Source: Escherichia coli (GTDB taxonomy: Bacteria > Pseudomonadota > Gammaproteobacteria > Enterobacterales > Enterobacteriaceae). Taken from it: a DNA stretch of 64,000 nucleotides. Every line of letters begins with the position of its first letter. Position 1 is the first letter of the stretch. Positions 30,458-64,000 of this stretch are shown here, piece after piece. The position numbers and the translations under genes were made by a program. Below the pieces are notes generated by a model. The model was not told the DNA's origin, ran no database searches, and saw only the letters and a list, made by a program, of their open reading frames with translations. The stretch lies in the NCBI RefSeq assembly GCF_048403405.1, contig NZ_CP183131.1; one strand, 5' to 3'.

Positions 30458-30476
30458 CGCGGCCTCAGTCTGTGCT

Positions 30477-43841: not shown

Positions 43842-45283
<1,442 letters not shown>

Positions 45284-45287
45284 CTTA

Positions 45288-45560
45288 TTATTTATCTATA
45301 TGTTTTGAAATCTTATCTACAATGGATGTAGTATCCATATTCATTATCCTCCCTGCTTTTTCAATCAGAAACTCAGCTTCATTTGTTATGTTCTTTGACT
45401 CTTCATTAATAATGTCAATGATAGTTTCTAGTGCGATTCCATACTCACCCACATCAATAAATTCTTGCACTTCTATACTTTCAGATTCAGAAAACGAATC
45501 AGACAGCACCATAAGCAAAAGATCTAGCGTGGATTCAATTTCTCTATATTCATTTTTCAT
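45288..45560 (-). CDS. putative Rhs immunity protein
   Basis: 90-aa acidic protein whose ATG overlaps the rhs stop (ATGA). AT-rich like the rhs toxin tip. Assignment is positional. Confidence 0.6.
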   Translation of the reverse strand: MKNEYREIESTLDLLLMVLSDSFSESESIEVQEFIDVGEYGIALETIIDIINEESKNITNEAEFLIEKAGRIMNMDTTSIVDKISKHIDK

Positions 45561-49819: not shown

Positions 49820-49951
49820 TTACAGCTCCAGTTTTTATGCTGGAGCTATTTTCAGGTGGGAGAGTCGTTATCAACGACTGCGTTTTTGCCCTTTTAGGGT
49901 ATGAATACGTGATTTGGAGAGGTTGTGTATTCAGAACAAATGAGAAGCAGG

Positions 49952-50677: not shown

Positions 50678-50790
50678 GGTCTATTTCTCCATTATCGGGA
50701 TAATGGTCGGCATCGCCGCCAGCACCCCTATTCGTTAGGGTTCATTTAGATGCTACCACGGGTTTTAAAAATGCAACCCCTAGTGCCACT

Positions 50791-51192
50791 CTATTTGTGG
50801 TCCCAAGTATTTTTATAAGCTCGGGCTAGGCGTTTCTCTATCACTTCTGACAAATTGCAACCATCGACTTCTGCCAACCGCTTCAAAATCCTGTGGGCTT
50901 TATCGCTTATAGTTATGCTTTTACCAACACCATATCCCCTTCTGCGACGTTGCCTAATTGATGTCCCGAGTTTATTGATTTGCTCTGCTGTCAGATATTT
51001 ATTAATCCATTCAGTGAGTTCTGATGGTGATCGCCCCATGCTGTTCAGGCTGTCCACGGCTTCAAGTTTCTTATCGAATGGGACGTCACGCCAGAAAGCT
51101 GGGCGCGAAGCAGCTCTGAGGAGATAGATCGCCGTAGCCTGAGCATCTTCATTGGATACTTTCAAAAAAACACCTTTACCGTTACATGTCAC
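50791..51192 (-). CDS. putative ribbon-helix-helix/CopG-like DNA-binding protein
   Basis: 133 aa (GTG start, uncertain). C-terminal ITISDKAHRILKRLAEVDGCNLSEVIEKRLARAY resembles an RHH module. The start is embedded in a 12-bp perfect inverted repeat. Confidence 0.45.
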   Translation of the reverse strand: MTCNGKGVFLKVSNEDAQATAIYLLRAASRPAFWRDVPFDKKLEAVDSLNSMGRSPSELTEWINKYLTAEQINKLGTSIRQRRRRGYGVGKSITISDKAHRILKRLAEVDGCNLSEVIEKRLARAYKNTWDHK

Positions 51193-51216
51193 ACCAACTT
51201 CATCGTGACATGTAAC
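51181..51216. promoter_or_regulatory. 12-bp perfect inverted repeat over the start of the RHH-like gene
   Basis: GTTACATGTCAC (51181-51192), 12-nt spacer, GTGACATGTAAC (51205-51216). Candidate auto-operator. Confidence 0.5.
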
Positions 51217-51411
51217 ACTTCAAACTGCAAGTATAAAAAAAGGCCAGCTATTGCTGGCCTTTACGTTCATTATCGCAGTTACTCTTTAGGCGTTGTGATG
51301 CTTTTTTTCCTTCTGTTTCTCATGGTAGAGATACAGACTGCCGCCAGTGACGACAGTGAAAAAAATGAGCAACCCCAACATGCCTAATGTGAAAGCGTCC
51401 ATTTGACCCCC

Positions 51412-51651
51412 TTAGGAATTGCTGACCTTGGTTAAGATTATACCATAGATCCACAGGATAACCCCAATGACCAACACCAAACCGGCTTCTTTGACGGTTA
51501 TAGTGTCCCCAGATACAGCCAATCCTACAATACCGACACCGATGGCTGTTACGGCGACCTTACGCAGGTCTTCACCGATAGCTCCCAGAGTCTTCTTGTC
51601 AGGAGAGAAAAGACGCACAAACCACGTCTTAATACGCAAAAACTTTTTCAT
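51412..51651 (-). CDS. small membrane protein
   Basis: Start MKKFLRIKTW at 51651 after GGAGGTAATC. Two TM segments. Last gene of the long minus-strand block. Confidence 0.5.
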   Translation of the reverse strand: MKKFLRIKTWFVRLFSPDKKTLGAIGEDLRKVAVTAIGVGIVGLAVSGDTITVKEAGLVLVIGVILWIYGIILTKVSNS

Positions 51652-51723
51652 GATTACCTCCATAGTTGAAGAGGAGGCGAATCATGCCCGAGAGGGCATG
51701 AACACCCCCTCAGGGTTAAAGTT
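51652..51723 (-). promoter_or_regulatory. structured leader, instance 1 (TAACCC box + SD-sequestering stem)
   Basis: Minus strand: TAA-AACTT-TAACCCTGAGGGGG, CATGCCC-TCTC-GGGCATG hairpin, then CCTCC...GGAGG pairing the SD. Confidence 0.5.
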
Positions 51724-52002
51724 TTAGGCAGACAAAGCTGTTGGCTTCGCCTTGTTCATCTTCATTGAGTTAATGATCTTCGTCGCTTCATCAGCAAACG
51801 GGCCAGTAACTTGGATAGGCTCCCTTCTTGCGAAGGAGGCTGTCACCATCATTCTCTGGCCGTGCATCAGATGACGATACCGAGACCGCATAAGCTCAAC
51901 GTAGGCCGCAGAGTCCCCCTCCCACCCCTCAGGGGGAGAAAAGGGGCACACCGCGTCGTTACCAGGCGTTGTATCAACCTTCGAGACATCAATGACGGCC
52001 AT
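51724..52002 (-). CDS. hypothetical protein
   Basis: Start taken at MAVIDVSKVDT (52002), 14-nt overlap with the primase stop. 92 aa. Confidence 0.45.
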   Translation of the reverse strand: MAVIDVSKVDTTPGNDAVCPFSPPEGWEGDSAAYVELMRSRYRHLMHGQRMMVTASFARREPIQVTGPFADEATKIINSMKMNKAKPTALSA

Positions 52003-53716
52003 ACTCAGCTCTCCTTCTCGCAATGAAATCGCGCAGGTAGCGAGCATTCGGGAAACCGAGGCTTCCCTGACTCATCAGGACATCGTTCCAGTCAATCCCT
52101 TTCGCTCTGGGCGGGATCGGGAGTTTAGGCAGCAGGACGTACACACGAATGCCGCGCTTCTCCAGCTTGGCTTTCAGCACGTTCGCTGACTTCTCACCAG
52201 TCACAGACTTATCTTTGTCAGCCCAGATCAGTACGGTGTGAACACCTTCTGGAACCTCGAAGGACTCCATCAGGGTCGCATTGACCGTTGACCAAACCGG
52301 GATTTGAGTGACTCGATAAGCTGACAGGGCTGTTTCCAGCCCTTCTGCAACACCCAGGATACCCTCAGTCGGTTCACCGAGGCGGATGGCCGCGCCATTG
52401 ACATCCAAACCGTCAGGAATGGGCATCATCTTCTTGGCGTTGCCGACCTTGGCTTTTTTACCGTTTTGGGTGAGATAGGTGCGGTGGAGCGTTACCAGGT
52501 TGCCTTCCACATCTCGGATAGCGCAGACGATAGCCGGGAATTTCCCAACTTCATTGCCATCTTCGTCGTAGTAGGCCATAGCCGGATTGAACCGCAGACA
52601 GTCTGTTTTTTCTACTTCATCAACCTTGAACAGAAGCTCGCGGTTTTTGAAGTACAGACGCATTGGCTCAGTCACATGACTGGAGAACGGCAAACACTCG
52701 TTCCATACCTTCTCGATTTTCTCACGGAGACGAGCACTGTAAGCGCGTTCGCGCTCCATTCTCTTCTCCATTTCTTCTTGGAGCTCAAGCAGCCAAGGCT
52801 TAGGTTGTTCACGAAACATCGGAACAACTTTCGGCTTGTTTTCGCTGCTTTGCTCTTCCGGTTGTGTGGCCGCATGTTGTACTTGCGGTGCCGGAGCTTC
52901 TACCGTGCGGTTGACCACAGGGGCCGACTCAACATGGTGACTCACCGGCTCAACACCACCGTTCGAGCGAGCGCGGAACTGCGTTACCGTAGCGCCGCGA
53001 CGTTCCACCAGCCAGGTGTTGCGATGCGTTTGCATAGGTTGTTCTCTCACAACATTCCCCTGCTCGTCCTTAACTTCAACGACGACAGTTACAGGCTCGC
53101 GCCCGAGGTTTGTCATGACGATCTCATCCCCATACTTGGCTTCACTTTCACCAATGGCTCTTTCAAGATCCACGCCCCAGATGGTGCGTTCCAAACCGCT
53201 CTTGTCACGGATGAAGGCAAAGTAGCTGAGCTCGTTGTCTTCGTTATGCTCATAAGGAGCTTTACCGTGGGCAATCAGAGTACCGGCAATGGATTTTTTA
53301 CGATTCTTGGAATCGAGAACCTTGTTATTCACCTTCATAGGCTCTTGCTGAACAGGCGCTTTGGCCTGGACAGGAGCTCGTGTCGGTGCAGCGGCTTGTT
53401 GATACTGGGGTTGCTCTTTCTCAACGCCCAGATAATCACCAACCTCGCTCAGGCACTGTTTAAAGTCCCAGTTATTGAGCCACATCAGCAGCTCAAAACC
53501 ATCATGATTGGCACCGCATGTATTGCATACGCCGCCACCAGTCAGGTGGGCATCCTTGAACAGTCGGAAGCCATCTTTCCCGCCGTGGATAGGACAAGAA
53601 ACATGACGACCAGGTTTACGGAGAGCTGGTTCAAGATGGGGCGCTAGGGCCGCCAGGATGAATAGCCAGTTTCCGTTTGCAGCTTCACGAACGGTGTCAG
53701 CTTTGTAGTAAGACAT
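51989..53716 (-). CDS. pri: DNA primase (zinc-ribbon + Toprim)
   Basis: Start MSYYKAD at 53716 after AAGGAGAAAACCT. P4-type primase zinc ribbon HVSCPIHGGKDGFRLF...GGVCNTCG. C-terminal Toprim GVAEGLETALS...LIWADKDKS. Confidence 0.75.
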   Translation of the reverse strand: MSYYKADTVREAANGNWLFILAALAPHLEPALRKPGRHVSCPIHGGKDGFRLFKDAHLTGGGVCNTCGANHDGFELLMWLNNWDFKQCLSEVGDYLGVEKEQPQYQQAAAPTRAPVQAKAPVQQEPMKVNNKVLDSKNRKKSIAGTLIAHGKAPYEHNEDNELSYFAFIRDKSGLERTIWGVDLERAIGESEAKYGDEIVMTNLGREPVTVVVEVKDEQGNVVREQPMQTHRNTWLVERRGATVTQFRARSNGGVEPVSHHVESAPVVNRTVEAPAPQVQHAATQPEEQSSENKPKVVPMFREQPKPWLLELQEEMEKRMERERAYSARLREKIEKVWNECLPFSSHVTEPMRLYFKNRELLFKVDEVEKTDCLRFNPAMAYYDEDGNEVGKFPAIVCAIRDVEGNLVTLHRTYLTQNGKKAKVGNAKKMMPIPDGLDVNGAAIRLGEPTEGILGVAEGLETALSAYRVTQIPVWSTVNATLMESFEVPEGVHTVLIWADKDKSVTGEKSANVLKAKLEKRGIRVYVLLPKLPIPPRAKGIDWNDVLMSQGSLGFPNARYLRDFIARRRAEYGRH

Positions 53717-53893
53717 AGGTTTTCTCCTTAGCGTGAACCCCAGCATCGAGGCTTCCTTAAACCCCCGTCGCCAGGGTTTTAAGGAAACCCCGACACCGGG
53801 AGAATGTGCCAAGGAGGCTCCCCAGCCGGGGAGAACTCCCCGGCGAGGGGTTTAAAAAGGTCGCCCCCGAAACGGAGGCGAATTTTGTGAATA
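53717..53893 (-). promoter_or_regulatory. structured leader, instance 2 (double box, preceded by terminator-like hairpin)
   Basis: Minus strand: CGCCTCCG-TTT-CGGGGGCG + CCTTTTTAAA, then TTTAAACCCCTCGCCGGGG and TTAAAACCCTGGCGACGGGGG boxes. Confidence 0.45.
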
Positions 53894-54280
53894 TCACAAG
53901 CACAAATGAGTGCCATCTTCCGAGGCCATCATGATTGTGACATCTGCGGTTACAGGATCTGACTTAATCACAACCTCAGTGGGTTTGAAAAAGCCATCTA
54001 CAGTGGGCATGGGGTAATAAAGACGAATCTTTCCCCAATTCTTGTTGTCGGTAAAAGCGACCTTTGTTTGAGCAACACAAAGCTGCAAAAACATGAAAAG
54101 GAAGTCTTCTACCGAGTGCTTACCATCTGCACCAAATACTCCATCGACAATTGCCGGGGTCACTGCCACATTGGTCAGGAAACCAGCTTGTTTACCGATG
54201 GAAGATTGGTCCACCAGCAGACCATCATTGATGGCTTGTTGACGGATTTGGGCGAGGTCCAATTTAGCTACTTGGTTCAT
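53894..54280 (-). CDS. hypothetical protein
   Basis: 128-aa ORF preceded by structured leader instance 3. No motif recognised. Confidence 0.5.
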   Translation of the reverse strand: MNQVAKLDLAQIRQQAINDGLLVDQSSIGKQAGFLTNVAVTPAIVDGVFGADGKHSVEDFLFMFLQLCVAQTKVAFTDNKNWGKIRLYYPMPTVDGFFKPTEVVIKSDPVTADVTIMMASEDGTHLCL

Positions 54281-54386
54281 AAGGTGTACTCCAAAGTTAA
54301 TGGGTACACCTACCCCGTGCGGGGAAGTGTACCCGCATGGGTTATTGAAAGGTCACGGCCAAAGCCGAGCTTTAAGGTTCCGAGTT
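54281..54386 (-). promoter_or_regulatory. structured leader, instance 3
   Basis: ATAACCCATGCGGG. Alternative stems TGCGGG/CCCGCA, GGGTACAC/GTGTACCC, and GGTGTAC.../...GTACACC (covers the SD GGAG). Confidence 0.5.
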
Positions 54387-54533
54387 TTACGCTGGCTGAA
54401 TGCGCCAAAGAACGGTCGGAGGAAACGAGTCAGCGACACGCTTCACATTCGCGTAAAGAGTGTCCTTAAAGACACGCTCTAAGCGACGACCACCTTGACG
54501 ATAAACCAACTTAAAGTCTTGGAATTTGTTCAT
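54387..54533 (-). CDS. small basic hypothetical protein (48 aa, below ORF-track cutoff)
   Basis: Manual translation MNKFQDFKLVYRQGGRRLERVFKDTLYANVKRVADSFPPTVLWRIQPA*. The ATG is preceded by GGAGGTATCC and a full structured leader. Confidence 0.4.
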   Translation of the reverse strand: MNKFQDFKLVYRQGGRRLERVFKDTLYANVKRVADSFPPTVLWRIQPA

Positions 54534-54737
54534 GGATACCTCCAGAAATAACGGGAGGTATCTCCAGCAGGAGATAGACTCCCGCAGGGATTAATAAATT
54601 AACGTTAATTTGCTGTTTGTTTTTGGCGACCAGCTATCGCACGCTTTCGCCCTCAGGGAGGACAAAATCTGCTTACTGATGGCTTAACCATGAGTAAGAA
54701 GACTTGGGAAGTAAAGCAGGGGTTTCCCCCTGCCTTG
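54534..54737 (-). promoter_or_regulatory. structured leader, instance 4, plus promoter-like box and terminator-like hairpin
   Basis: Minus strand order: GCAGGGGGAAACCCCTGC-TTTACTT (54716-54733), GTGCGATAGCTGGTCGCCAAAAACAAACAGCAAATT (54607-54642), TTAATCCCTGCGGG, then GATACCTCC/GGAGGTATC SD stem. Confidence 0.5.
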
Positions 54738-55589
54738 TTATGCCGCTTTGAGGTGGCGAGAGAAAAAGTCCCTGGTTTGCTGGATAGCGCCCCGGAGAAG
54801 TTCTCGTCTGTAGCCAGCGTAGCTCTTGTCATCACTGGCAACGGTCAAGCCGTGCAGACTCTCTTCACCCAGGACAATCTCGTTTTCACGAGAGAGTACC
54901 TCAACACGTAGGCCAAGCACTCGCTCTTTCCCTTCCAGGATAGAACAAATTGTTTGGTCTCTTACTTCGTCATCCCAGTGGCCCATATCGAAATCCCGCT
55001 CAGGGAGTTCAGTAACACGCACCAGGTAGTTTTCAGTGGCCCGTTCCCAAACCACTTCATCTTCGCATGGAGAGGCCTCGATCAGCGAGTACCCGTCCGC
55101 TTCGAGCTTCTTGGAAAGACTTTTTACATCATCCGCCAGCTCCAGCACAAAGCGTTCCCAGAGGTCTTGCCAGCGCTCGACCATATCCTGGTTAATCCCT
55201 TCAATGCCGGTGCCAATCATGGAATCATCATCAGGGAAGATCCCTGTGAAGTCCACGTTGTCGTCGATGTTCATGCAGTTCCAATGGCTGTAGTGATGCC
55301 CGTGACTATTCCGAGTAATGGACAGGTCACAGGAACCATATTCGCGGAGGACAGAAAGCATATTCTCAATGTCTTTCTGTGCCATCAGGTTCTTCACGCG
55401 GCTGACAGCATCCACTTGGCCGGGCTCAGTGCTGAATAGGCGATTCATGAGAGCTTTGACGTCATCAACGCTCAAATCCCCGTAGAAGGCTACGCCATCC
55501 CCCTGGCAGTATCCGAGACTGTACTCAATCGTCAGATCATCCGGGTATCCACACTTAACCAGTTCGTTTTGAAAATGCTGTTTAATCAT
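54738..55589 (-). CDS. hypothetical acidic protein
   Basis: Start MIKQHFQNELVK at 55589 after AAGGAGATACCA. 283 aa. No motif recognised. Confidence 0.5.
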   Translation of the reverse strand: MIKQHFQNELVKCGYPDDLTIEYSLGYCQGDGVAFYGDLSVDDVKALMNRLFSTEPGQVDAVSRVKNLMAQKDIENMLSVLREYGSCDLSITRNSHGHHYSHWNCMNIDDNVDFTGIFPDDDSMIGTGIEGINQDMVERWQDLWERFVLELADDVKSLSKKLEADGYSLIEASPCEDEVVWERATENYLVRVTELPERDFDMGHWDDEVRDQTICSILEGKERVLGLRVEVLSRENEIVLGEESLHGLTVASDDKSYAGYRRELLRGAIQQTRDFFSRHLKAA

Positions 55590-55663
55590 TGGTATCTCCT
55601 TAATTTCAGAGGGAGACACCATCCCCTCAGGGACCGATGTCCCCCGTGGGGTTAATGTTTGGG
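55590..55663 (-). promoter_or_regulatory. structured leader, instance 5
   Basis: TTAACCCCACGGGGGACATCGGTCCCTGAGGGG hairpin. GGGGGACA/TGTCTCCC alternative. GGTGTCTCC/GGAGATACC SD stem. Confidence 0.5.
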
Positions 55664-56221
55664 TTAAGAAGCCTTGCGGTTTAATTCAGTATCAAATCGA
55701 GGACCTTTGAGAACCGCAGTTTTCATAACCTCGAAGTTTCTTGGGTAACGCAGCTTTGAAACTGCGCCAGCTCGGATGTCGGCAGCCTCACTTGGAGAGA
55801 CTAGCCTTAACCCTTCGCTGGTTTCAGCGTAGAACCAACCGGCATAACGCTCATAGGCATTCTGCTGGTACTGTTCAGTCGCCATATTCTTCCGGATCGC
55901 CTCTGTTAAGGCCTCAACAACACCGTCATCTTTCGTGATGATGTTGAAAACATGAGAGACGGTCAGGAAGTTCCCAAAGAAGCAGGCTGCCCCAAGCCAA
56001 GGCTGGAACATTTCGCCATTTCGCCCCGTCCTCACCATTGGTTCAAACGGGTATGGGCGATAACAGTGATACTGCTCAAACATCGGGTCAAGAACGTTGT
56101 CACCCAGGACATCCAGTAAAGTCTGAATGCTGTCCGGGTCTTGGCCTGCCCACTTACTCCCATTGCTGAGAATCAGTGTTTTACCGTCAGTACGCTCCAG
56201 AGCTTGTTCAAAGTTAGACAT
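55664..56221 (-). CDS. hypothetical protein
   Basis: Start MSNFEQALERTDGK at 56221 after AAGGAATGCACT. The longer track ORF reads through the leader. 185 aa. Confidence 0.5.
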   Translation of the reverse strand: MSNFEQALERTDGKTLILSNGSKWAGQDPDSIQTLLDVLGDNVLDPMFEQYHCYRPYPFEPMVRTGRNGEMFQPWLGAACFFGNFLTVSHVFNIITKDDGVVEALTEAIRKNMATEQYQQNAYERYAGWFYAETSEGLRLVSPSEAADIRAGAVSKLRYPRNFEVMKTAVLKGPRFDTELNRKAS

Positions 56222-56294
56222 AGTGCATTCCTTTTGGTTAGGACGCACCACACCCTCTCGGGATGATGCGCCCGAGTGGGTTAGTTGAGAAGGC
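56222..56294 (-). promoter_or_regulatory. structured leader, instance 6
   Basis: CTAACCCAC-TCGGG-CGCATCAT-CCCGA-GAGGG hairpin. GGGCGCA/TGCGTCC alternative. GTGCGTCCT/AGGAATGCAC SD stem. Confidence 0.5.
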
Positions 56295-56513
56295 TTAGCC
56301 GTCAAGTCCGTAAATTACGGCGGAGCCGGGCTCCATCTCGACAACTTGTGCGCTTCCTTCTTCTATCAGCTCCTGCATGTAACCAGACTCAGCATCCGGA
56401 TTACGTTCGCAGTGTTCGTCCCAGCGTTTCAAAAGCCCTTCTGTGGCTTGTCCGTGGGTCTCACCAAGGCCGATAAACTCATAGTGTCCTGTGTTTACGA
56501 TGATCACCACCAT
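56295..56513 (-). CDS. small hypothetical protein
   Basis: Start MVVIIVNTGHYEF at 56513 after AGGAGAGCACTAGCT, downstream of the stop at 56527. 72 aa. Confidence 0.45.
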   Translation of the reverse strand: MVVIIVNTGHYEFIGLGETHGQATEGLLKRWDEHCERNPDAESGYMQELIEEGSAQVVEMEPGSAVIYGLDG

Positions 56514-56526
56514 AGCTAGTGCTCTC

Positions 56527-56796
56527 CTACAGGTCACTTGGTACATACAGGTCATCTTTGATGGCAGAAAAATCGACAGGAGACTGGTCCCCATAGGTTC
56601 GATTCACGCCACCAGCATCATCGACACTGACAAAAACCGTGCGGAGTAAACCGCTGGGCTTTGCAGGGTAAACGATGCTGACATGCTGACCTTTGTACTG
56701 TTCTGACAAAGTGCTTTGAAGCTCATCAACCGAACGGAATTTCCGGTCGCGGCCAAAGTCCTTAATCTTGATGTCGCCAGGGATTGGATTAGTCAT
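56527..56796 (-). CDS. hypothetical protein
   Basis: 89-aa ORF overlapping the HD-domain gene stop by 8 nt. Confidence 0.5.
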   Translation of the reverse strand: MTNPIPGDIKIKDFGRDRKFRSVDELQSTLSEQYKGQHVSIVYPAKPSGLLRTVFVSVDDAGGVNRTYGDQSPVDFSAIKDDLYVPSDL

Positions 56797-57394
56797 CGTT
56801 ACCCCCTGCCAGCAGTTTATCTACTGAATGGCCGAGTCCGTTACCAAACCATTTGTCCAGAGCGTCGATTTCCGGGAAGTCCGATTTCACCTGAGCAACA
56901 ACACGTTCCATTTTGCTGAGAGCATCCTGGAACTCAAGGCCATTACCTGCGGCCACCTCAAGTTTGCACTTGATGTAAGCGGAGTAGGTATCACAGGCCT
57001 TAACCAGTGATTGTTCATAGCCACCGGGAGCGAAGGCTATGGCGACTGCATCCTGGAGTTCTTCGGGAAGAGTCTGGATGAGTTTGTCCTCTGCGGCCTT
57101 TTCCAGTCGTTCAAACTCACGCTGCAAAACAGCGTTTGCTTTCTTGACCGGTGTTACAACATCCGAACAGAGAACCTCGGCTGCATCATGCAACGAAGCA
57201 TGAGCAAGCATGACTGCCAGATCCACCGACTTCCCTTGCTGAATGGCAATATTGCCAGCCAGGTAGGAAAGCAGGGTAACAACAGCGCTGTGTTCCAACA
57301 CAGACTCCGGTTGAACAGAGTGCATCAGTGACCAGCGTTTGATCAGGCGTTGGCGCAAGGCCAGAGCTAGAAAGCCGAAATTTGAATTAGACAT
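56789..57394 (-). CDS. HD-domain phosphohydrolase (YfbR-like 5'-nucleotidase family)
   Basis: 201 aa. H...HD...E/D pattern: VLEHSAVVTLL, MLAHASLHDAAEVLCSDVVTPVKK. Confidence 0.7.
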   Translation of the reverse strand: MSNSNFGFLALALRQRLIKRWSLMHSVQPESVLEHSAVVTLLSYLAGNIAIQQGKSVDLAVMLAHASLHDAAEVLCSDVVTPVKKANAVLQREFERLEKAAEDKLIQTLPEELQDAVAIAFAPGGYEQSLVKACDTYSAYIKCKLEVAAGNGLEFQDALSKMERVVAQVKSDFPEIDALDKWFGNGLGHSVDKLLAGGNDD

Positions 57395-57465
57395 AGTGCC
57401 TCCAAAATTGGTTGGAGGTACACCAAAGCCGACCGGGCCTTGGTGTACCCGGTTGGGTTACTTAG
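57395..57465 (-). promoter_or_regulatory. structured leader, instance 7
   Basis: GTAACCCAACCGGG. ACCGGG/CCCGGT, GGTACACCAA/TTGGTGTACC and CCTCCAA/TTGGAGG (SD) stems. Confidence 0.5.
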
Positions 57466-57669
57466 TTATCTCGGGTCAAGCTGCTTAGCTATAGCGAGTA
57501 AAAACGGATGGAATGGATGATCTTGCGGGACACCCCCAACAAGCTCACGGGCTAAACCGACTGAGTTTGTAGCCAACACCTCTTTGACGGCCAGAATGAT
57601 TTCATTGTCGATTTCATCCTGGGTCTTTCGTTGTTGGTCCACCAGCCGACTTAACTTGTCTAGGCTCAT
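57466..57669 (-). CDS. small hypothetical protein
   Basis: 67-aa ORF preceded by a leader with the perfect 8-bp SD stem TTCTCTCC/GGAGAGAA. Confidence 0.5.
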   Translation of the reverse strand: MSLDKLSRLVDQQRKTQDEIDNEIILAVKEVLATNSVGLARELVGGVPQDHPFHPFLLAIAKQLDPR

Positions 57670-57840
57670 GCTTCTCTCCTTTGTTTGTGGGAGAGAACCC
57701 AGGAGGGGTTTCCTCCCGAGGGGTTAGGTTATTGCTGTTTTGGGCCAGCTACCGTTATAGCCAGCAAGCGCTGACAATGAACAAAGAGTATGACAGCCAC
57801 CTAAAAGGGTAAAACGCTGTAATTGCCCTTTTGGGGTGCA
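57670..57840 (-). promoter_or_regulatory. structured leader, instance 8, plus promoter-like box
   Basis: After the terminator at 57841-57870: CGGTAGCTGGCCCAAAACAGCAAT (57731-57754), CTAACCCCTCGGGAGGAAACCCCTCC, then the SD stem. Confidence 0.5.
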
Positions 57841-57870
57841 AAAGAAAAAGCCCTCCCGAAGGAGGGCTTT
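57841..57870 (-). terminator. rho-independent terminator after the DndC-like gene
   Basis: Minus strand: TAA-AAAAGCCCTCC-TTCG-GGAGGGCTTTTTCTTTT. Confidence 0.8.
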
Positions 57871-60324
57871 TTATGCGGCCAAGGACAAGCCTTGCTGTCC
57901 TCTTTGCAACTCTGTGTCGTCGCGGCGATGTAAGCGTTGAACCGCCTTGATCATCGTTCTGACATGTCGCTCCAAAGAGGCTGGATGGCGTTTTGACAGT
58001 AGGTTGATCCAGTCGAGATAGATAGCAAGCGCGGAACCTTCGGTTAGGGCTGCCTGTATCGCCTCATACTGCCCTACGGCACTCTGGACCACATCATTCA
58101 CCCACTGGGCGTCAGTATTGTCCAAGAGCTCGCAGAGGGCCGTATAAGCCTTCCTTCTGGTCGCGGCCATGTAACGACGAATGTTGGCGTTTCCGCTCCC
58201 CTCTCGCCCTTCCATGACGCTCATACAGAATGCGCTGGAGTAACAAAGCATCGCGTCAGTCACGTAGTTAAACCATCGCTCCTGATGCCGTTTCTGTTCT
58301 TCCATTGCTTCCTGGTCAAGTTGCTTCTCGATGAACAACCCCGTCGGAGTACGGTGGTGCAGATGGTACTTGAACGTTAAGTGCAAGTTGACCCACCAGC
58401 GTACCGTTGCCAGTCTTCCCTTGATTTTTCGCTTCACCAGATCTTTGTACTTAGCATCGCTAAGCACTTTGACATCCTTGCGCTGTTGGATTCCTTCCAT
58501 CGTCTGTAGCCCTGTAAGGCCCATCTGGTGGTAGGTTTGACCTCTTTGCATCATACGGTGATACAAAGCGCCTTTTCCTTTCGCAAGCTGGATTGCTCCG
58601 AACCGAAGGTAGAACTGCGCTGCACTACCGGGCGTATAATGTCCCTTTAGTACAGACTCCCTTAGTCGCGGGTATTCGTTCCAGATGATGAACGCAGCGG
58701 AGTCGGGATCGACTTTCACTTCATCATCTTCTGCGAAGCAAACCACCCTTCTCTTTCCGTCTGCGGTATTGATCACTTGCGCTGCCAACGGGTCATCCCC
58801 GCCGTCAAAGTAAGCCATTTCCGCTAACGGATCGGCCAAGCCATCAGAAAGCGAACCATCGCCCCAGCGACCAACCTTCAACCACAATGGCTTCGGAATT
58901 GGTGACTGAGGAACGGTTTCACACTGCGGCTCGTCTTCCAGCAAGTCCAGATCACCCATCGACCAAACCCTGTGGTAAATCTCCAGGGCATGGAAAGGCT
59001 TATCATTGAAATGATGGAAGGCCCACATGAAGTCGATATGGACTAAAGCCTCTTCCGATATGATCCGGAATTGTGGCTCTGCCATTCGACGGTTCCAGTC
59101 GTTATCCTCTGCTTGACCAGTAGCCAGCTTGTATGCCAGCTCATCAGCTCTCTTTTGCTCCATGTAGTCCATGCTGCAACAGACATGAAGCAATCGTTCT
59201 AGGAAAACAGGACTGTAAACGTCCGGCTGTATTTTGATGTATCCGCCCTCGTAAATCGTTCGACCTACGGGATGGCGGTCTTCCCATGCGTACCGGCGTT
59301 TTGCCAAGTAGCGCTGGATGCGGTTCAGCCCCGACATATAGCCATGCCTTTCAGGGTCCGTGGCAAGCAACGTCTCCATTGACTTATCCAACCCAACAGC
59401 CTGGCAAGCCCAGCAACCGAAGCGAGCGCCACAGGCGTCACTGGCCTTCTTCTCTGTTGCCGACCACACGCACTCCCCTGTTGCCGCCTTGTAAAGCTCT
59501 GCCGTAGTGACATTGCTCTCCAAGTAACTTGGCAGAGGATATGCTGAGCCCATGCCAGCGGATAGTAAGAACTCCCAGACATCACTCGCCAACCAGTTTT
59601 TCACCACATACAGCTCACCCCCATCTTTCGTCTTAATGACGCGATCTGAGCTTCCTCGCTGTTTTGCAATGTTGGCCGCACGAATAGTGCTTTCAGCATC
59701 ACGACTGCCCAGCAAAAGGCAGACTTTCTGTCGAACCTCTTTGGGAAGCTCTCGCATATAAGCTGCCTTCGCTCTTTTGGCAGAGGTGATTTTTAAATCC
59801 TGGCTACACTGGCGGGCCGTGGAGTTGGAAAACGTAGGCAACCCCCTCCCAGTAAGGATTCGGCCCGTCCAACTCTGCGAGATCCCAGGCTTTGCTAGAA
59901 CGATGGTCAGAGGAAGGTTTTCCTTCGCAATGAAACGCTCCAGCTCGGCCAGTTTCTGATCCGCCAGCCACCTTACCTCTGGGCTTTCGATCAGTGTGTC
60001 AGTGTGCAAGATGAAGTGGTGCTGGCTGATGGTCGCCCCACTCCTTACAGCCCGGATCAGGGCCATCAGGAACAGGTGCAAGACCGTTTCAGAATCTTTA
60101 CCACTGGAATAGCCGATCATCATGGTCCACCCATCAATTAAGGCCGTGTGAATGGACTCAACCGATGACGTGATCAACGATGACAGACTGGTTCCTCTAC
60201 TGGCATCAACGAAGTTCAAATCCTCGTTATCAGTCAGTTCTGACCAAACAGAATCCCACTTATCCCCACGCAAAAGCACTGGGATGGGTTGTTCTGATAG
60301 ATCAAAGTTTAATGTTTGTTGCAT
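57871..60324 (-). CDS. large DndC-like PP-loop/PAPS-reductase-family protein
   Basis: 817 aa. PP-loop GYSSGKDSE near residue 70. Cys motif CGARFGCWACQAVGLDKSMETLL as remembered for DndC-type sulfurtransferases. The about 450-aa C-terminal extension has no recognised domain. Confidence 0.65.
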   Translation of the reverse strand: MQQTLNFDLSEQPIPVLLRGDKWDSVWSELTDNEDLNFVDASRGTSLSSLITSSVESIHTALIDGWTMMIGYSSGKDSETVLHLFLMALIRAVRSGATISQHHFILHTDTLIESPEVRWLADQKLAELERFIAKENLPLTIVLAKPGISQSWTGRILTGRGLPTFSNSTARQCSQDLKITSAKRAKAAYMRELPKEVRQKVCLLLGSRDAESTIRAANIAKQRGSSDRVIKTKDGGELYVVKNWLASDVWEFLLSAGMGSAYPLPSYLESNVTTAELYKAATGECVWSATEKKASDACGARFGCWACQAVGLDKSMETLLATDPERHGYMSGLNRIQRYLAKRRYAWEDRHPVGRTIYEGGYIKIQPDVYSPVFLERLLHVCCSMDYMEQKRADELAYKLATGQAEDNDWNRRMAEPQFRIISEEALVHIDFMWAFHHFNDKPFHALEIYHRVWSMGDLDLLEDEPQCETVPQSPIPKPLWLKVGRWGDGSLSDGLADPLAEMAYFDGGDDPLAAQVINTADGKRRVVCFAEDDEVKVDPDSAAFIIWNEYPRLRESVLKGHYTPGSAAQFYLRFGAIQLAKGKGALYHRMMQRGQTYHQMGLTGLQTMEGIQQRKDVKVLSDAKYKDLVKRKIKGRLATVRWWVNLHLTFKYHLHHRTPTGLFIEKQLDQEAMEEQKRHQERWFNYVTDAMLCYSSAFCMSVMEGREGSGNANIRRYMAATRRKAYTALCELLDNTDAQWVNDVVQSAVGQYEAIQAALTEGSALAIYLDWINLLSKRHPASLERHVRTMIKAVQRLHRRDDTELQRGQQGLSLAA

Positions 60325-60411
60325 AGGGCCTCCTGGATTAGCAGGGTGCCCATCCCTTCCGGGAAAGCACCCCGGTAGGGTTAAAATTGAATCCTGGCTA
60401 TCAGACCTGAA
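60325..60411 (-). promoter_or_regulatory. structured leader, instance 9 (cut from its upstream gene by the IS3-family element)
   Basis: TTAACCCTACCGGGGTGCTTTCCCGGAAGGG hairpin. GGGTGC/GCACCC alternative. GGGCACCCTG/CAGGAGGCCC SD stem. Confidence 0.5.
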
Positions 60412-61640
60412 TGAATCGCCACGGGTTTAACAGACACCTCAGAGTCATTTAAGATGGCTTAAAGAGAGGTGCCCATGAGCGGTAAGCGTTATCCCGAAGA
60501 GTTTAAAATTGAAGCAGTCAAACAGGTTGTTGATCGCGGTTATTCTGTTGCCAGCGTTGCAACACGTCTCGATATCACCACCCACAGCCTTTACGCCTGG
60601 ATAAAGAAGTACGGTCCGGATTCTTCCACTAATAAAGAACAGTCAGATGCTCAGGCCGAGATCCGCCGTCTCCAGAAAGAGCTGAAGCGGGTTACCGACG
60701 AACGGGACATATTAAAAAAAGCCGCGGCGTACTTCGCAAAGCTGTCCGACTGAGGTACGCCTTTATCCGTGACAACACCTGTTGCTGGCCTGTTCGCCTG
60801 CTCTGTCGGGTGCTGGATGTTCATCCCAGTGGTTTTTACGCCTGGCTTCAGCAGCCGCATTCACAACGCCATCAGGCAGACCTAAGACTGACAGGACAGA
60901 TTAAACAGTTCTGGCTGGAATCGGGATGCATCTATGGTTATCGCAAAATCCATCTGGATCTGCGGGACAGCGGGCAACAGTGCGGAGTGAACAGAGTCTG
61001 GCGACTGATGAAACGTGTCGGGATAAAGGCTCAGGTTGGATACCGGAGCCCGCGAGCACGTAAAGGCGAAGCCAGTATCGTGTCGCCCAACAGGCTCCAG
61101 CGACAGTTCAATCCGGATGCTCCGGATGAGCGTTGGGTAACGGACATAACCTACATCAGGACCCACGAAGGCTGGCTGTATCTTGCCGTGGTTGTTGATC
61201 TGTTCTCACGCAAAATTATCGGCTGGTCCATGCAATCCCGGATGACAAAGGACATTGTCCTGAACGCACTGCTGATGGCTGTATGGCGGCGTAATCCCCA
61301 AAAACAGGTGCTGGTTCATTCGGATCAGGGCAGTCAATACACAAGCCATGAGTGGCAGTCGTTCCTGAAATCACACGGCCTGGAGGGCAGCATGAGCCGT
61401 CGCGGTAACTGCCATGATAATGCGGTTGCAGAAAGCTTTTTCCAGTTGTTGAAACGCGAACGGATAAAGAAAAAGCTCTACGGAACGCGGGAAGAAGCCC
61501 GCAGCGATATTTTTGATTACATCGAAATGTTTTATAACAGTAAGCGTCGGCATGGTTCTAGCGATCAGATGTCACCGACAGAATATGAAAACCAGTATTA
61601 TCAACGGCTCGGAAGTGTCTAGATTATCCGTGGCGATTCA
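60412..61640 (+). mobile_element. IS3-family insertion sequence, 1229 bp
   Basis: IRs TGAATCGCCACGG... at both ends. orfA 60475..60753 (HTH). A7G slippery site at 60714-60721. orfB in the -1 frame to 61622 (DDE: WVTDITY, HSDQGSQY). 3-bp target duplication GAA (60409-60411, 61641-61643). Confidence 0.85.
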
Positions 61641-61643
61641 GAA

Positions 61644-62030
61644 CTAGCTGCTACTCGACATCTGGTTGTCTTCGTATTGCTGCTTGGCCTGTTTCACCAG
61701 ATCAATGTCACCGTCTTGCAGCTTTTGAATATCAAGCTGTAGACGAGCCTTGTGTTTCAACAGTTCAGCGACCGCATTATCAATGTGATCAATGAGCGAT
61801 TGGTTTTTTTGGATGGTGTAACTGTTGAGTTCATCGAGCAGGGGCCATGCAACACTCGAATGAGTGTTGAGCAATGGGTACTCTGCTTCGATCTCACAAA
61901 CCACACCGTTTGCTCCTTCTCTGTAATGAGGGAACCCGACACGCAGACCGATACGACGATCCAGCGCTGCATTTACAGTACATTCCAAAGAAGTTCGGTT
62001 TGAAAAAACATCGTTGACGTTTTTAGACAT
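61644..62030 (-). CDS. hypothetical protein
   Basis: 128-aa ORF with a C-terminal coiled-coil-like segment. Preceded by leader instance 10. Confidence 0.5.
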   Translation of the reverse strand: MSKNVNDVFSNRTSLECTVNAALDRRIGLRVGFPHYREGANGVVCEIEAEYPLLNTHSSVAWPLLDELNSYTIQKNQSLIDHIDNAVAELLKHKARLQLDIQKLQDGDIDLVKQAKQQYEDNQMSSSS

Positions 62031-62262
62031 GCTATATCTCCGTTCAGTTTATGACGGAGCCCCCCTAACAGGAGGTGCTCCCGTCAGGGTTGATAATTTG
62101 CTGTTTGTTTTTGGCAGCCAGCTACCGCACTTGAGCGCCTAAGGCACTTTCCGAAGCACCCTGGGAAACCGAGATGCTTGGGAAAGCGCGGGGTTTCCCC
62201 CTGCGCTGATTACCCTTTTTAAGGGGCCGGTACGCCGATTTCTCGGCGCACTCAGGTTGAAG
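62031..62262 (-). promoter_or_regulatory. structured leader, instance 10, plus promoter-like box and terminator-like hairpins
   Basis: GCGCAGGGGGAAACCCCGCGC-TTTCCC (62186-62206), GTGCGGTAGCTGGCTGCCAAAAACAAACAGCAAATT (62095-62130), TCAACCCTGACGGG, then CTCCGT/ACGGAG SD stem. Confidence 0.5.
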
Positions 62263-62817
62263 CTACACAGTCAAGAACCAACGTTTCATAGGGACGGTGA
62301 TGTCTATCATCCCGTTTCCACATGGATTCTGGCCCCAGAATCTGTAGGTCGTCTCATAGAAGTCAAACTCAGACAAGGACTGAATCTGCGCTTCTGAGAT
62401 CGGCTCAAATGGTCCACCGCAACCGATGTGCATATTGAGCCCATAATCTCGAAGCTCTAGCTCTCCGAGATTTAGCGTCTTCCCGCCCACACAAGCAACC
62501 AAGTTCTGGTTTCTGACGTCGCCTTCTTTGAACAGCAAAGCTGACTCATCGTAGCTCCCATATTGGTTGGTAAACTTCACAATATGCCCGTGCTTAGGTG
62601 AGGTTTGTTCCGACAACTCTTTCAGTAATCGCTTTACGCTTTGAAATCTCGCGTACAGAGCTGGCGTAAACTGCCCAGAGTAGTTCAAGTTTGGGCAGAT
62701 CATTTCAAGCATCTCATCAGGTACAGATTCAAGCCCCATTTGCGCGGCCAATGGCTTCGCCTTTTTCAGACCTTCCTCAAGCACTCTCTGATTTACAAGT
62801 TGTTCTAATGTGTTCAT
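62263..62817 (-). CDS. hypothetical protein
   Basis: Start MNTLEQLVNQ at 62817 after GGAGAGTCAA. 184 aa. Confidence 0.5.
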   Translation of the reverse strand: MNTLEQLVNQRVLEEGLKKAKPLAAQMGLESVPDEMLEMICPNLNYSGQFTPALYARFQSVKRLLKELSEQTSPKHGHIVKFTNQYGSYDESALLFKEGDVRNQNLVACVGGKTLNLGELELRDYGLNMHIGCGGPFEPISEAQIQSLSEFDFYETTYRFWGQNPCGNGMIDITVPMKRWFLTV

Positions 62818-62890
62818 TTGACTCTCCACTTTCGAGAGAGCAATGCAAGCCGTCTCCGGACTTACATTGCCCGTTAACGGCTTTATTGGT
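62818..62890 (-). promoter_or_regulatory. structured leader, degenerate instance 11
   Basis: GTTAACGGGCAATGTAAGTCCGGAGACGGCTTGCATTGC hairpins. CTCTC/GAGAG pairing over the SD. The box is degenerate. Confidence 0.35.
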
Positions 62891-63322
62891 TTATCCCAAG
62901 AGGTACGGAGCTACGCCAGTCAGGAAGCCCATGACTCCCAACACAGCGCCAACCACGCCCAATTTGATTGACAGTTGGACACTTTGATCCGGATGGTTCC
63001 AGAACCACTGCCAGACTTCCCAGCGCCTGGCTCTGCGAACCTCAAGATTTACAGTGTCTTTAAAACGAACACCCAGAGCATCTACCGCATCGTAATCCAG
63101 CGCGACCGCCAGCTTTGTGATGGATAAATTCCCAGGGTTGCCCATCGCATACCGGAGAACCTTTGCTTTGGTCTCTGGGTTTACGATCATAACCGGCTCC
63201 CTCCTGAAAAAACGGGTCTTGTCTTTTCGCTTGGAATCCATGTTGCGGTTATGGAACCTGGCAATGCAGTGTTGAAGGCCTGAATCCTCGGGAGGTAAAG
63301 GCACAACAGTTTCGATTTTCAT
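62891..63322 (-). CDS. hypothetical protein with C-terminal TM helix
   Basis: Start MKIETVVPLPPED at 63322 after AAGGAGAGTAATC. C-terminal LGVVGAVLGVMGFLTGVAPYLL. Confidence 0.5.
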   Translation of the reverse strand: MKIETVVPLPPEDSGLQHCIARFHNRNMDSKRKDKTRFFRREPVMIVNPETKAKVLRYAMGNPGNLSITKLAVALDYDAVDALGVRFKDTVNLEVRRARRWEVWQWFWNHPDQSVQLSIKLGVVGAVLGVMGFLTGVAPYLLG

Positions 63323-63382
63323 GATTACTCTCCTTTCGGATAGGCCGGAGCAAAGGCCTTTCGGCATTGCCCCGGTGAGTTA
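63323..63382 (-). promoter_or_regulatory. structured leader, degenerate instance 12
   Basis: GTAACTCACCGGGGCAATGCCGAAAGGCCTTTGCTCCGG. CTCC...GGAG pairing over the SD. Confidence 0.35.
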
Positions 63383-64000
63383 CTAATGAACCAAAGATGA
63401 AGTGACCATGATTGCGTCTCCGGACATCATTACCGGGAGATATTCGCAAGGCTCATGGCCGCAGCTCTTTTTAGTTCCGTTAGGTGAATAGACAGCCAAT
63501 TGACCATCCATAATGTTGAAGGGCATCCCCTGTTTTTTCGCTGCCGGTGACAGCTTGAGAGTGCCCTTTGCGTCAACCAATGCCGTTGCCCAATGGAAGT
63601 CTTCACCACCGATCACCGGCTGTGATTCATCCACGACTTCGACCATGATTGGCATCATTCCAACCCAGCTCCACAGGCTGTTCCCTAATGCGAGGGCTAA
63701 AGCCTCGAACGCGGGAAAGACTACCGATTGCCCGAGAATCTGGTGGGCAATAGTGTCCGACAGACCTTGGATGAGTTCCTCTGGTATCCCTTTCACTCGA
63801 CAATGTTCTGTCGGTGTAAAGATGCGAGACAACTCCGGCTGTTCTGGATGAACAATGAAAGGTTCGGTACTTCTGCATTTTGCATAGTCCTTACCTATGG
63901 TGCCGCAAAACTCATCGTCGCCAGTCAGAAGCTGGCGAGAGAACCCCTTGCCAGCAGCTTTGTCTCTCAACTCCTTCTCAGCCAGATAGTCAAATGACTT
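63383..64000 (-). CDS. DNA (cytosine-5)-methyltransferase-like protein, partial (5' end beyond window)
   Basis: Reading frame open to the window edge. C-terminal MTase-like motifs RIFTPTEHCRVKGIPEELI (motif IX-like) and HQILGQSVVFPAFEAL (motif X-like, GQSV instead of GNAV), followed by an extra domain of about 100 aa. Confidence 0.5.
   Translation of the reverse strand, partial: KSFDYLAEKELRDKAAGKGFSRQLLTGDDEFCGTIGKDYAKCRSTEPFIVHPEQPELSRIFTPTEHCRVKGIPEELIQGLSDTIAHQILGQSVVFPAFEALALALGNSLWSWVGMMPIMVEVVDESQPVIGGEDFHWATALVDAKGTLKLSPAAKKQGMPFNIMDGQLAVYSPNGTKKSCGHEPCEYLPVMMSGDAIMVTSSLVH

Follow-up and report, generated by a model that had tools for sequence, protein, structure and literature searches.

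A recurrent structured intergenic motif, and candidate RNA leader, in the AcaCD-dependent gene block of IncC plasmids

Three related boxes on the minus strand of a 64,000-nucleotide (nt) stretch of Escherichia coli DNA (contig NZ_CP183131.1, assembly GCF_048403405.1; hereafter the window) were described, in a reading made from the sequence only, as promoter-like elements of a single family which mark transcription-unit boundaries and which might be regulated by the FlhDC-like activator AcaCD. The boxes do belong to one family of composite intergenic modules punctuating a co-directional gene block but, on present evidence, they are neither promoters nor AcaCD boxes. It is tentatively suggested here that each box forms the core of a structured RNA leader of about 200 nt, acting in cis after transcription initiation and, in the mechanism preferred here, on translation initiation. 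The presence in mRNAs of a conserved, strand-specific, structured element, in register with a sequestered ribosome-binding site (RBS), is firmly supported, and it is for these properties that a post-initiation role at the RNA level is favoured.

The window is made of IncC (IncA/C2) plasmid backbone, matched by hundreds of IncC plasmids at 99-100% identity (megablast). It is collinear with the reference plasmid pVCR94deltaX (NC_023291.1) over window positions 45229-60411 (minus strand; plasmid 99264-84085) and 61641-64000 (plasmid 84087-81728), a 1.2-kb insertion sequence (IS) separating the two segments. All strings quoted in the sequence-only reading were recovered on the minus strand where it had placed them. 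Box 1 (54607-54642) lies between the vcrx119 and vcrx120 homologues, box 2, a shorter relative (57731-57754), between those of vcrx113 and vcrx114, and box 3 (62095-62130) between those of vcrx111 and vcrx112. Boxes 1 and 3 are identical at all but three of their 36 positions. Two of the substitutions compensate each other, turning an A-U pair of a 4-bp stem into G-C, and the remaining one yields a G-U pair.

The conserved core is a hairpin with a covarying stem of 4-5 bp and the loop UAGCUGG, followed by an A-rich linker and CAGCA. Stem variants across copies include GCGA/TCGC, GCGG/CTGC, GAGA/TCTC, GAGG/CCTC, and ACGT/ACGT. In the 96 distinct cores used to build a covariance model, most of them from other genomes, stem 1 showed 130 double-change cells over five pairs compared with 42 in column shuffles, none of 500 shuffles attaining the observed number. 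Double changes were found at all five pairs, and the true stem register paired in 93% of cells as against 22-56% for slid registers. These cores had been preselected for three stem pairs; the fourth pair, which was not used in the selection, was paired in 88 of 96 and showed 24 double changes. RNAalifold, applied to 25 full-length modules, recovered only the core stem as the flanking hairpins do not align, and per-sequence folding statistics were used instead; it added a U.G pair closing the loop, in place of which variants found with the covariance model carry U-A or C-G. Folding was more stable for the sense than for the antisense strand, by about 3.9 kcal/mol (p 3e-4), and a strand test comparing G-U with A-C combinations at unselected pairs was weakly informative (17 versus 9).

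The GCUG of the loop is complementary to the conserved CAGC located 9-10 nt past the stem, and an H-type pseudoknot closed by this pairing is likely but unproven. In such a fold loop 1 would measure 1-2 nt and loop 2 0-1 nt, stem 2 would have 4 bp, and loop 3 would be rich in A. The motif occurs in a long form, with a stem of 4-5 bp and a linker of 9-10 nt, and in a short form, which includes box 2, with a stem of 2-3 bp and a linker of 5-6 nt; linker length thus scales with the length of stem 1, as pseudoknot geometry requires. Stem 2 (GCUG-CAGC) was fixed by the search pattern.

Copies of the motif were found well beyond the window. In pVCR94deltaX there are eight (65111, 66153, 70985, 75421, 79820, 83602, 86740, and 89855), which have the core G[GA]TAGCTGG and all lie on the coding strand within the 65-90 kb AcaCD-dependent block, and the covariance model returned no copies elsewhere in this plasmid or in the window. 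A diverged but syntenic pAQU1-like Vibrio plasmid (NZ_CP034301.1) carries 11, all on the coding strand, and 19 of 19 plasmid copies are in the coding orientation. One genome per bacterial species was scanned with the pattern TAGCTGG-N7-AAA-N-AAACAGCA, whose 18 specified bases lead to about 17 matches expected by chance; at least 120 stretches matched. Among the matches listed, 97 of 120 distinct cores can form three or more stem pairs in succession, and their stem sequences are of many kinds; most of the remaining cores, largely from Bacteroidota and other non-proteobacterial hosts, lack a complementary stem, in agreement with the chance expectation. The stem-bearing hosts are Gammaproteobacteria and Betaproteobacteria and include Vibrio, Shewanella, Marinobacter, Marinomonas, Marinobacterium, Photorhabdus, Edwardsiella, Idiomarina, and Pseudoalteromonas, as well as Azomonas, Comamonas, Tepidimonas, Sulfuritalea, Rhodocyclaceae, Gallionellaceae, and others, often with 2-4 copies per 8 kb on one strand. 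One match (H52) proved to be another IncC plasmid and not an SXT/R391 element. A search of 2.9 million viral contigs gave three matches, one of which, on a 4.6-kb fragment, has a complementary stem. The motif is essentially confined to conjugative elements, and occurs in many conjugative plasmids and integrative elements.

The family resemblance of the three boxes is beyond chance. A loose pattern search allowing three mismatches gave three matches against 1.7 expected, which is not significant by itself. The covariance model gives 53.8 bits for box 3 (E ~1e-11), 53.0 bits for box 1 (E ~2e-11), and only 15.7 bits for the short box 2 (E 0.13); the last is credible only because the diverged orthologous leader of the pAQU1-like plasmid keeps the short form and because this form recurs in other elements. 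The three modules folded with z-scores of -6.7, -5.6, and -3.4, and none of 200 dinucleotide shuffles folded as well.

The motif also stands at a regular distance from the start of the next gene. A start codon with a Shine-Dalgarno (SD) sequence and an open reading frame (ORF) of at least 40 codons lies 90-109 nt downstream in 49 of 93 non-redundant copies from all hosts and 120-139 nt downstream in 18 more. The intervening leaders fold with a mean z-score of -4.8, and the SD sequence was at least 75% paired in 65 of 71 motif leaders, compared with 54 of 102 other pVCR94 genes (Fisher p 2e-8). In orthologous leaders of the IncC and pAQU1-like plasmids each hairpin is kept by compensatory changes despite sequence drift. 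The covariation of the stem, together with the fixed distance to a sequestered RBS, argues for an element that works at the RNA level.

Published transcript data place these elements inside mRNAs. In the vcrx087 and vcrx114 leaders of the two plasmid families alike, the loop follows the end of an AcaCD-type motif by 64-70 nt, a spacing by which the element begins a few nt after the transcription start site (TSS), and the element lies at about +30 in the 5' untranslated region (5'UTR). A third copy lies deeper in its leader: at IncC vcrx098 the AcaCD motif precedes it by 128 nt, and in the pAQU1-like counterpart by 169 nt. Rapid amplification of cDNA 5' ends (5'-RACE) gave no clear signal for vcrx098 (Carraro et al. 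2014, PMC4207636). In this vcrx098 leader (pVCR94deltaX ~75340-75410) a GC hairpin with a U run, equivalent to the first hairpin (H1) of the modules, lies downstream of both the AcaCD box and the expected TSS, and would thus be part of the 5'UTR, not the terminator of the preceding gene. In published RNA-seq, vcrx087-vcrx125 are all at 0-12 units without AcaCD and at 10^2-10^4 with it, including vcrx089, 094, 107, 112, and 120, which follow a module without an AcaCD site; by these low values, the modules show no promoter activity when AcaCD is absent. Across modules without an AcaCD site the RNA level varies by ~0.3x to 3x only, which argues that the H1 hairpins are not effective terminators in vivo. 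Each AcaCD-driven unit of ~10 kb has a 5'UTR copy at its start and one or two internal copies. Operon calls made by Rockhopper on a published dataset break exactly at these intergenic regions.

All three modules share the same order, namely a GC hairpin (H1), one or two variable hairpins, a hairpin abutting the core (H3), the core, a short A/U-rich spacer, an AACCC-footed hairpin (H4), a hairpin involving the SD sequence (H5), and the start codon; in module 2 a true terminator and an AcaCD promoter replace the first GC hairpin. The hairpins noted earlier after the preceding stop codons are present (GCAGGGGGAAACCCCTGC at 54716-54733, GCGCAGGGGGAAACCCCGCGC at 62186-62206, and a canonical terminator at ~57845-57872), as is the string GCAGGGGGAAACCCC..GCTTT..CCCAAG common to modules 1 and 3. 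The 'TAACCC leader box' said to follow each box is exact at box 2 only, box 1 having AATCCC and box 3 CAACCC; what is conserved is AACCC, the 5' foot of the hairpin that follows. The features of module 1 are as follows.

54713..54736, minus strand: H1, GC-rich hairpin (GGCAGGGGGAAACCCCTGCC-like) followed by UUUACUU, just after the stop codon of the vcrx119 homologue (fold)
54667..54703, minus strand: H2, long variable hairpin (minimum free energy and centroid fold)
54646..54666, minus strand: H3, UUUUGUCCUC-CCU-GAGGGCGAAAG, directly 5' of the core (fold)
54626..54640, minus strand: core hairpin with stem GCGA/UCGC and loop UAGCUGG at 54630-54636 (covariance model match 54605-54644, 53.0 bits)
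54611..54625, minus strand: A-rich linker CAAAAACAAA and conserved CAGCA (putative CAGC-loop GCUG pairing)
54596..54611, minus strand: perfect 16-nt palindrome AAATTAACGTTAATTT, abutting CAGCA (sequence; in a subset of modules only)
54563..54590, minus strand: H4, hairpin with the AAUCCC/AACCC element as its 5' foot (fold; equivalent in 71 diverse leaders)
54535..54562, minus strand: H5, pairing the SD sequence GGAGG (54539-54543) with an upstream CCUCC (fold)
54387..54533, minus strand: 48-codon ORF, vcrx120 homologue, downstream of the module, ATG at 54531-54533 (translation)

H1 of module 1 passes a terminator scan marginally and would be no more than a weak terminator; in published RNA-seq the signal does not fall across the module (vcrx119 3475, vcrx120 10485). 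At the position of H3, paralogues and orthologues keep a hairpin via compensatory changes, e.g. CCUC/GAGG to UCUC/GAGA. The palindrome begins at the last A of CAGCA in three of the eight IncC modules (the others at pVCR94deltaX ~66181 and ~71013) and is also found in pAQU1-like and Photorhabdus copies, without being part of the general motif; it could be bound as an operator by a DNA-binding protein, or it could form an additional hairpin in the RNA. The 48-codon vcrx120 homologue was absent from the ORF list, made at a cut-off of 60 amino acids (aa). Its induced RNA (10485) is the second highest of the block, behind vcrx088 at 11025, and it is probably a real small protein because the motif in Marinobacterium is followed by a homologous ORF of 55 aa. 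Module 2 comprises the following features.

57845..57872, minus strand: canonical intrinsic terminator of the 817-aa gene (vcrx113 homologue), AAAAAGCCCUCC-UUCG-GGAGGGCUUUUU (sequence)
57815-57843, minus strand: AcaCD box of the vcrx114 promoter, TTTTGCACCCCAAAAGGGCAATTACAGCG (26.1 bits; mapped from the published motif at pVCR94deltaX 86650-86678)
57778-57780, minus strand: probable vcrx114 TSS, transferred to this plasmid from the published 5'-RACE position 86713-86715
57760..57775, minus strand: H3, GUCAGC-GCUU-GCUGGC (fold; conserved in the pAQU1-like orthologue)
57733..57753, minus strand: short-form core (box 2), GG-UAGCUGG-CC, 5-nt linker CAAAA, and CAGCA (covariance model 15.7 bits, E 0.13)
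57698..57720, minus strand: H4, CCUCGGGAGG-AAACC-CCUCCUGGG, with AACCC at 57721-57725 (fold)
57672..57697, minus strand: H5, SD sequence AGGAG (57676-57680) paired with UUCUCUCC; vcrx114 ATG at 57667-57669 (fold)

The terminator was also matched below threshold by the Rfam family ctRNA_p42d, as a generic terminator-like hairpin only. The vcrx114 AcaCD box lies between this terminator and box 2, and it overlaps the T tract of the terminator to give a very compact terminator-promoter junction (57815-57872, minus strand). Counted from the mapped 5' end of the transcript, H3 of module 2 starts at about +4 to +6. Module 3 is composed as follows.

62185..62207, minus strand: H1, GC hairpin GCGCAGGGGGAAACCCCGCGC followed by UUUCCC (fold)
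62149..62184, minus strand: H2, in which the UUUCCC run pairs with a downstream GGAAAG (fold)
62134..62148, minus strand: H3, AGUGCC-UUA-GGCGCU (fold; same type in pAQU1-like and Marinobacterium copies)
62114..62128, minus strand: core hairpin with stem GCGG/CUGC and loop UAGCUGG at 62118-62124 (covariance model match 62093-62132, 53.8 bits)
62099..62113, minus strand: A-rich linker and CAGCA (sequence)
62063-62089, minus strand: H4, with the AACCC foot at 62087-62091 (fold)
62038-62059, minus strand: H5, pairing the SD sequence GGAG (62038-62041); vcrx112 ATG at 62028-62030 (fold)

H1 of module 3 is followed by three U only and fails the terminator scan. The 1.2-kb IS at 60412-61640, annotated as IS3-family with two plus-strand ORFs and extra relative to pVCR94deltaX, sits directly after the stop codon of the vcrx112 homologue, between this gene and the vcrx113 homologue, an 817-aa PAPS-reductase-like gene. 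As the latter has no AcaCD promoter of its own, its expression may suffer a polar effect of the insertion. Window positions 22612-37307 and 44038-45228 have no counterpart in pVCR94deltaX and presumably correspond to accessory or resistance insertions.

The first genes 3' of the motif fall into 30 clusters. These include a DUF3799 PDDEXK nuclease, SSB, DUF3150, a MoxR/CbbQ-type ATPase, and vcrx087-like small membrane proteins, together with a DUF1281-like protein, the vcrx120 family of 48-55 aa, and many products without a known function. The genes served form an establishment and single-stranded DNA (ssDNA)-handling set and not a metabolic regulon.

In the tentatively preferred reading, the leader would be transcribed within long AcaCD-dependent mRNAs, at the transcript 5' end (module 2) or between cistrons (modules 1 and 3), and its final hairpin would sequester the SD sequence of the next gene, with the start codon ~90-135 nt from the loop. 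The hairpin or pseudoknot and the A/C-rich single strand may then provide a recognition or ribosome-standby platform governing access to the RBS, read by a conserved host component or by an element-encoded RNA-binding protein. More broadly, and again tentatively, the motif may represent an undescribed, widespread RNA class which marks establishment and ssDNA-handling sub-operons (e.g. SSB, Bet/Exo-type nucleases, DUF3150/MoxR, methylases) of IncC and pAQU1-like plasmids and of many chromosomal conjugative elements in Gamma- and Betaproteobacteria, and which is read by a conserved factor; possible readers include the ribosome/S1, RNA polymerase, or an SSB-type protein of the element, which would make expression respond to ssDNA being present.

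Several observations weigh against an RNA leader acting on translation. The control for SD pairing used a slightly different window, and its baseline was already 53%. Stem 2 shows no compensatory double change, and its single changes in variants found with the covariance model are wobble-compatible in four cases and disruptive in two, so that its conservation could equally reflect protein recognition. The functional diversity of the downstream genes, which belong to establishment and ssDNA handling, argues against a metabolite riboswitch. No candidate factor emerged from a Pfam scan of 37 block proteins (vcrx086-vcrx127; IncC 64-94 kb; ssb, bet, exo, vcrx109, and several others omitted), in which no RNA-binding, NusG_N/KOW, or sigma-like domain was found and only AAA_5/CbbQ_C, DUF3150, DUF3085, methylase, and MatP_N-like domains were detected. 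Finally, a copy at ~+30 of each long operon, then repeated every 3-5 kb after a GC hairpin, also fits antitermination. In the same Pfam scan, matches to Serglycin were rejected as artefacts of the GS linkers within the five concatenated polyproteins that served as queries.

Antitermination is the strongest of the alternatives, although unlikely on balance. The element would work in the manner of ops, nut, put, or EAR, as a signal for processive antitermination or against polarity: at the start of each long operon, and once more after every intergenic hairpin, the RNA or the non-template DNA would make RNA polymerase resist GC-hairpin/U-run terminators, as well as Rho in the untranslated gaps. 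The operon-level pattern fits this almost as well as it fits control of translation: a copy lies at ~+30 of AcaCD-dependent transcripts in two plasmid families, more copies follow every 3-5 kb in units of ~10 kb, there is no fall in RNA levels past the H1 hairpins, and conservation across Beta- and Gammaproteobacteria suits a universal target such as RNA polymerase. Most H1 hairpins carry three U only, however, so that there may be little to antiterminate, the fixed spacing to a sequestered RBS is unexpected for antiterminators, and no NusG/KOW protein was found among the 37 IncC block proteins scanned. Lambda nut, HK022 put, and the rrn boxB-boxA sites are antitermination sites in which a variable hairpin stands beside a conserved sequence, with the rrn sites repeated in leader and spacer. 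The present modules are similar in having a variable hairpin by a conserved sequence, in their position at the start of long operons, and in their internal repeats, but they contain no boxA-like sequence, have a different loop, show a conserved RBS spacing, and have no N/Q/Nus-type factor encoded nearby.

The RfaH ops/JUMPstart element has the 12-nt consensus GGCGGTAGnnTG, read on the non-template strand. The motif resembles it in being placed in the 5' leaders of long operons, those for conjugation among them, and in its GGTAGC core, and a subset of copies, some of them betaproteobacterial, reads GGCGGTAGC, which is identical to positions 1-9 of ops. Against a common identity, the bases preceding TAGCTGG change in concert with those on its 3' side and hence belong to a stem, not to a fixed ops sequence; five of the eight IncC copies read GATAGC; positions 10-12 are TGG versus GTG; window copies (GTGCGATAGCTGG, GTGCGGTAGCTGG) fail the ops consensus at critical positions; and ops lacks both the conserved CAGCA and the tie to the RBS. 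An ops identity was rejected for the window copies GTGCGATAGCTG, GTGCGGTAGCTG, and TAACGGTAGCTG, which fail the consensus, the bases 5' of TAG covarying with the 3' side.

A role as RNA processing or stability punctuation is less probable still. Transcripts would be cut at the modules, H1 guarding the upstream 3' end and H3 with the core protecting the downstream 5' end. This would be consistent with the hairpins that flank a single-stranded A-rich stretch, with RNA levels differing up to ~3-fold in either direction across modules, with an H3 that starts, as a 5' stabiliser would, within a few nt of where the vcrx114 transcript begins, and with the splitting of operons at the modules by operon callers. 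A nuclease site or protective hairpin, however, needs no near-invariant 7-nt loop with CAGCA across two proteobacterial classes.

It is improbable that the motif functions as an ssDNA element in conjugation, like ssi/Frpo of F-like leading regions, its hairpins forming on the transferred strand and recruiting primase or RNA polymerase, either to express genes early or to synthesise the complementary strand. Its gene context is that of establishment or leading regions (SSB, Bet/Exo, PDDEXK nuclease, DNA methylases, and a Toprim primase-like protein), it is essentially confined to conjugative elements (one of the three viral-contig matches having a complementary stem), and the STAXI motif offers a precedent for ambiguity between RNA and ssDNA. 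Yet the copies occur in one 25-kb block only, at least 27 kb from the origin of transfer (oriT), and inside mapped donor-cell mRNAs, no -35/-10-like hexamers were seen on either strand, a 4-5 bp stem is weak for DNA, and SD sequestration and start-codon spacing make sense in RNA only; the IncA/C nic site and transfer direction, moreover, were left undetermined by a 2017 oriT study.

Even less support can be found for a family of promoters under a second AcaCD-dependent plasmid factor, e.g. AcaB, which is very unlikely. Such promoters would account for downstream genes that depend on AcaCD yet have no nearby AcaCD site, for the ~3-fold RNA rise at vcrx120, and for a box conserved in the manner of a protein-binding site. 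The box, however, lies downstream of two mapped TSSs, covariation of its stem is unexpected for an operator in duplex DNA, and the spacing between its conserved halves varies by ~5 nt between the long and short forms; no -10/-35 elements follow it, Cappable-seq reports no TSS at the boxes, and published reporter fragments of vcrx098 and vcrx114 needed AcaCD/SgaCD directly in plasmid-free cells. A scan for sigma-70 -35/-10 hexamers (16-18 nt spacing) over 53800-62900 gave two promoter-like sites against a shuffle mean of 6.7, none of them in the modules. The promoter claim of the sequence-only reading is thus not borne out, there being no sigma-70-like -35/-10 pair at any box and the downstream genes being silent without AcaCD. 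Sigma-54 or sigma-70 promoters were likewise rejected, nothing having been seen by eye or by hexamer scan.

That the boxes are AcaCD-binding sites, for which their location in the AcaCD-dependent block is the sole argument, is refuted by published chromatin immunoprecipitation-exonuclease (ChIP-exo) data: they score -5 to +1.7 bits, lack the GCCCNDWWWGGGC core, and coincide with no peak. AcaCD binds GCCCNDWWWGGGC at positions -64 to -37, whereas the boxes contain no such core, score below +2 bits, and are downstream of a TSS or far from any; what they share with the class II AcaCD promoters of IncA/C plasmids is the plasmid and gene block, one genuine AcaCD box within module 2, and the presence of a motif copy in the 5'UTR of three AcaCD promoters of pVCR94deltaX. 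The ChIP-exo motifs and 5'-RACE starts are available in pVCR94deltaX coordinates (Carraro et al. 2014, PMC4207636), and the window was scanned with a weight matrix made from 19 published motif sequences. The best scores on the gene strand in the three box regions were -3.0, +1.7, and -5.0 bits, and 15 of the 19 training sites score 19.8-28.7 bits. Published summits occur in the block only at pVCR94deltaX 65015, 75305, 86685, and 94630, with no peak at 83.6 or 89.9 kb, the equivalents of boxes 3 and 1, and no TSS reported near these two boxes in published 5'-RACE/Cappable-seq data. The peak near box 2 belongs to the separate sequence at 57815-57843; box 2 itself lies at +25 to +48 from the mapped vcrx114 TSS, inside the 5'UTR, and thus not at the AcaCD position of -64 to -37. 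A later study that used ChIP-exo together with Cappable-seq as well as RNA-seq reported 18 AcaCD-responsive promoters, no additional SgaCD-bound promoter, no binding upstream of vcrx119/vcrx120, and Cappable-seq peaks that generally pair with known AcaCD promoters (Durand et al. 2021, PMC8373056). Other genuine AcaCD boxes detected by the matrix are those of vcrx128 (49878-49906, minus strand), vcrx140 (21790-21818, minus), traF (19511-19539, minus), vcrx152 (8391-8419, plus), and vcrx012 (1517-1545, minus), none of which is followed by the hairpin motif.

The kind of element proposed here, an orphan cis-regulatory structured RNA, is known, and STAXI is the nearest described motif in kind; the motif itself appears to be new. 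Neither the box strings nor the motif were found described in the open-access literature, including that on IncC/SXT regulation, leading regions, and IncC antitermination, although an earlier description elsewhere is possible. Rfam 15 scans (cmscan, E up to 1-5) of window 53000-64000, pVCR94deltaX 63-95 kb, and six distant loci returned no match overlapping a module core, and gave, with STAXI (RF01728), PreQ1, and sbcD included, only terminator-like and sub-threshold chance matches. In a Sulfuritalea element with four motif copies, sub-threshold matches to sbcD (RF01757) were seen at 5657-5741 and 6092-6166 (both minus strand; 26.6 and 24.9 bits versus a gathering threshold of 40), which do not overlap the motif and are probably due to chance. 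The sequence UAGCUGG also occurs in 16S rRNA (nt 286-292); the chance of such a 7-mer coincidence is ~9%, and it was set aside.

The STAXI RNA motif (RF01728; Weinberg et al. 2010, PMC2864571) is likewise an orphan, repeated, and found near DNA-handling genes of mobile elements, and forms a pseudoknot; in the mobile elements of enterobacteria its neighbours are genes for SSB and antirestriction, and neither its function nor whether it acts as RNA or ssDNA has been settled (PMC2864571). STAXI is arranged in tandem, with 2-3 units per site, whereas the present motif is single, recurs every 1-5 kb with each copy tied to a downstream start codon, differs in sequence and loop, gives no covariance model match to STAXI, and reaches Betaproteobacteria. 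The preQ1-I riboswitch and other small H-type aptamers are alike in their short stem, loop pairing with a 3' segment, A-rich linker of a type suited to minor-groove triples, and position 5' of genes, but the motif has no Rfam match, a 7-nt loop, a predicted pseudoknot ~70-100 nt from the SD sequence rather than overlapping it, and no shared metabolic theme. In the phage T4 gene 32 mRNA leader, a pseudoknot and an unstructured A/U-rich tract are bound by the ssDNA-binding protein. The resemblance, purely one of analogy, lies in a 5' pseudoknot and a single-stranded A-rich tract before the RBS, with SSB genes among those served by the motif; here structured hairpins precede the RBS and many non-SSB genes are served.

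IncC plasmids are major carriers of multidrug resistance, and their regulation has so far been described in terms of activation by AcaCD/AcaB and repression by Acr. The additional leader is carried by ~25 kb of AcaCD-dependent genes, including those for SSB, Bet/Exo recombination, methylases, and a primase-like protein, and it is found again in many conjugative elements of seemingly unrelated kinds in two proteobacterial classes. Repeats in this block need not be AcaCD boxes, a tempting mis-annotation which the present analysis corrects. If the leader controls translation, read-through, or RNA stability, it would provide a shared control point for plasmid establishment functions; if the proposal is true, the motif would constitute a new orphan RNA family and a second, post-initiation layer of control beneath FlhDC-like master activators.

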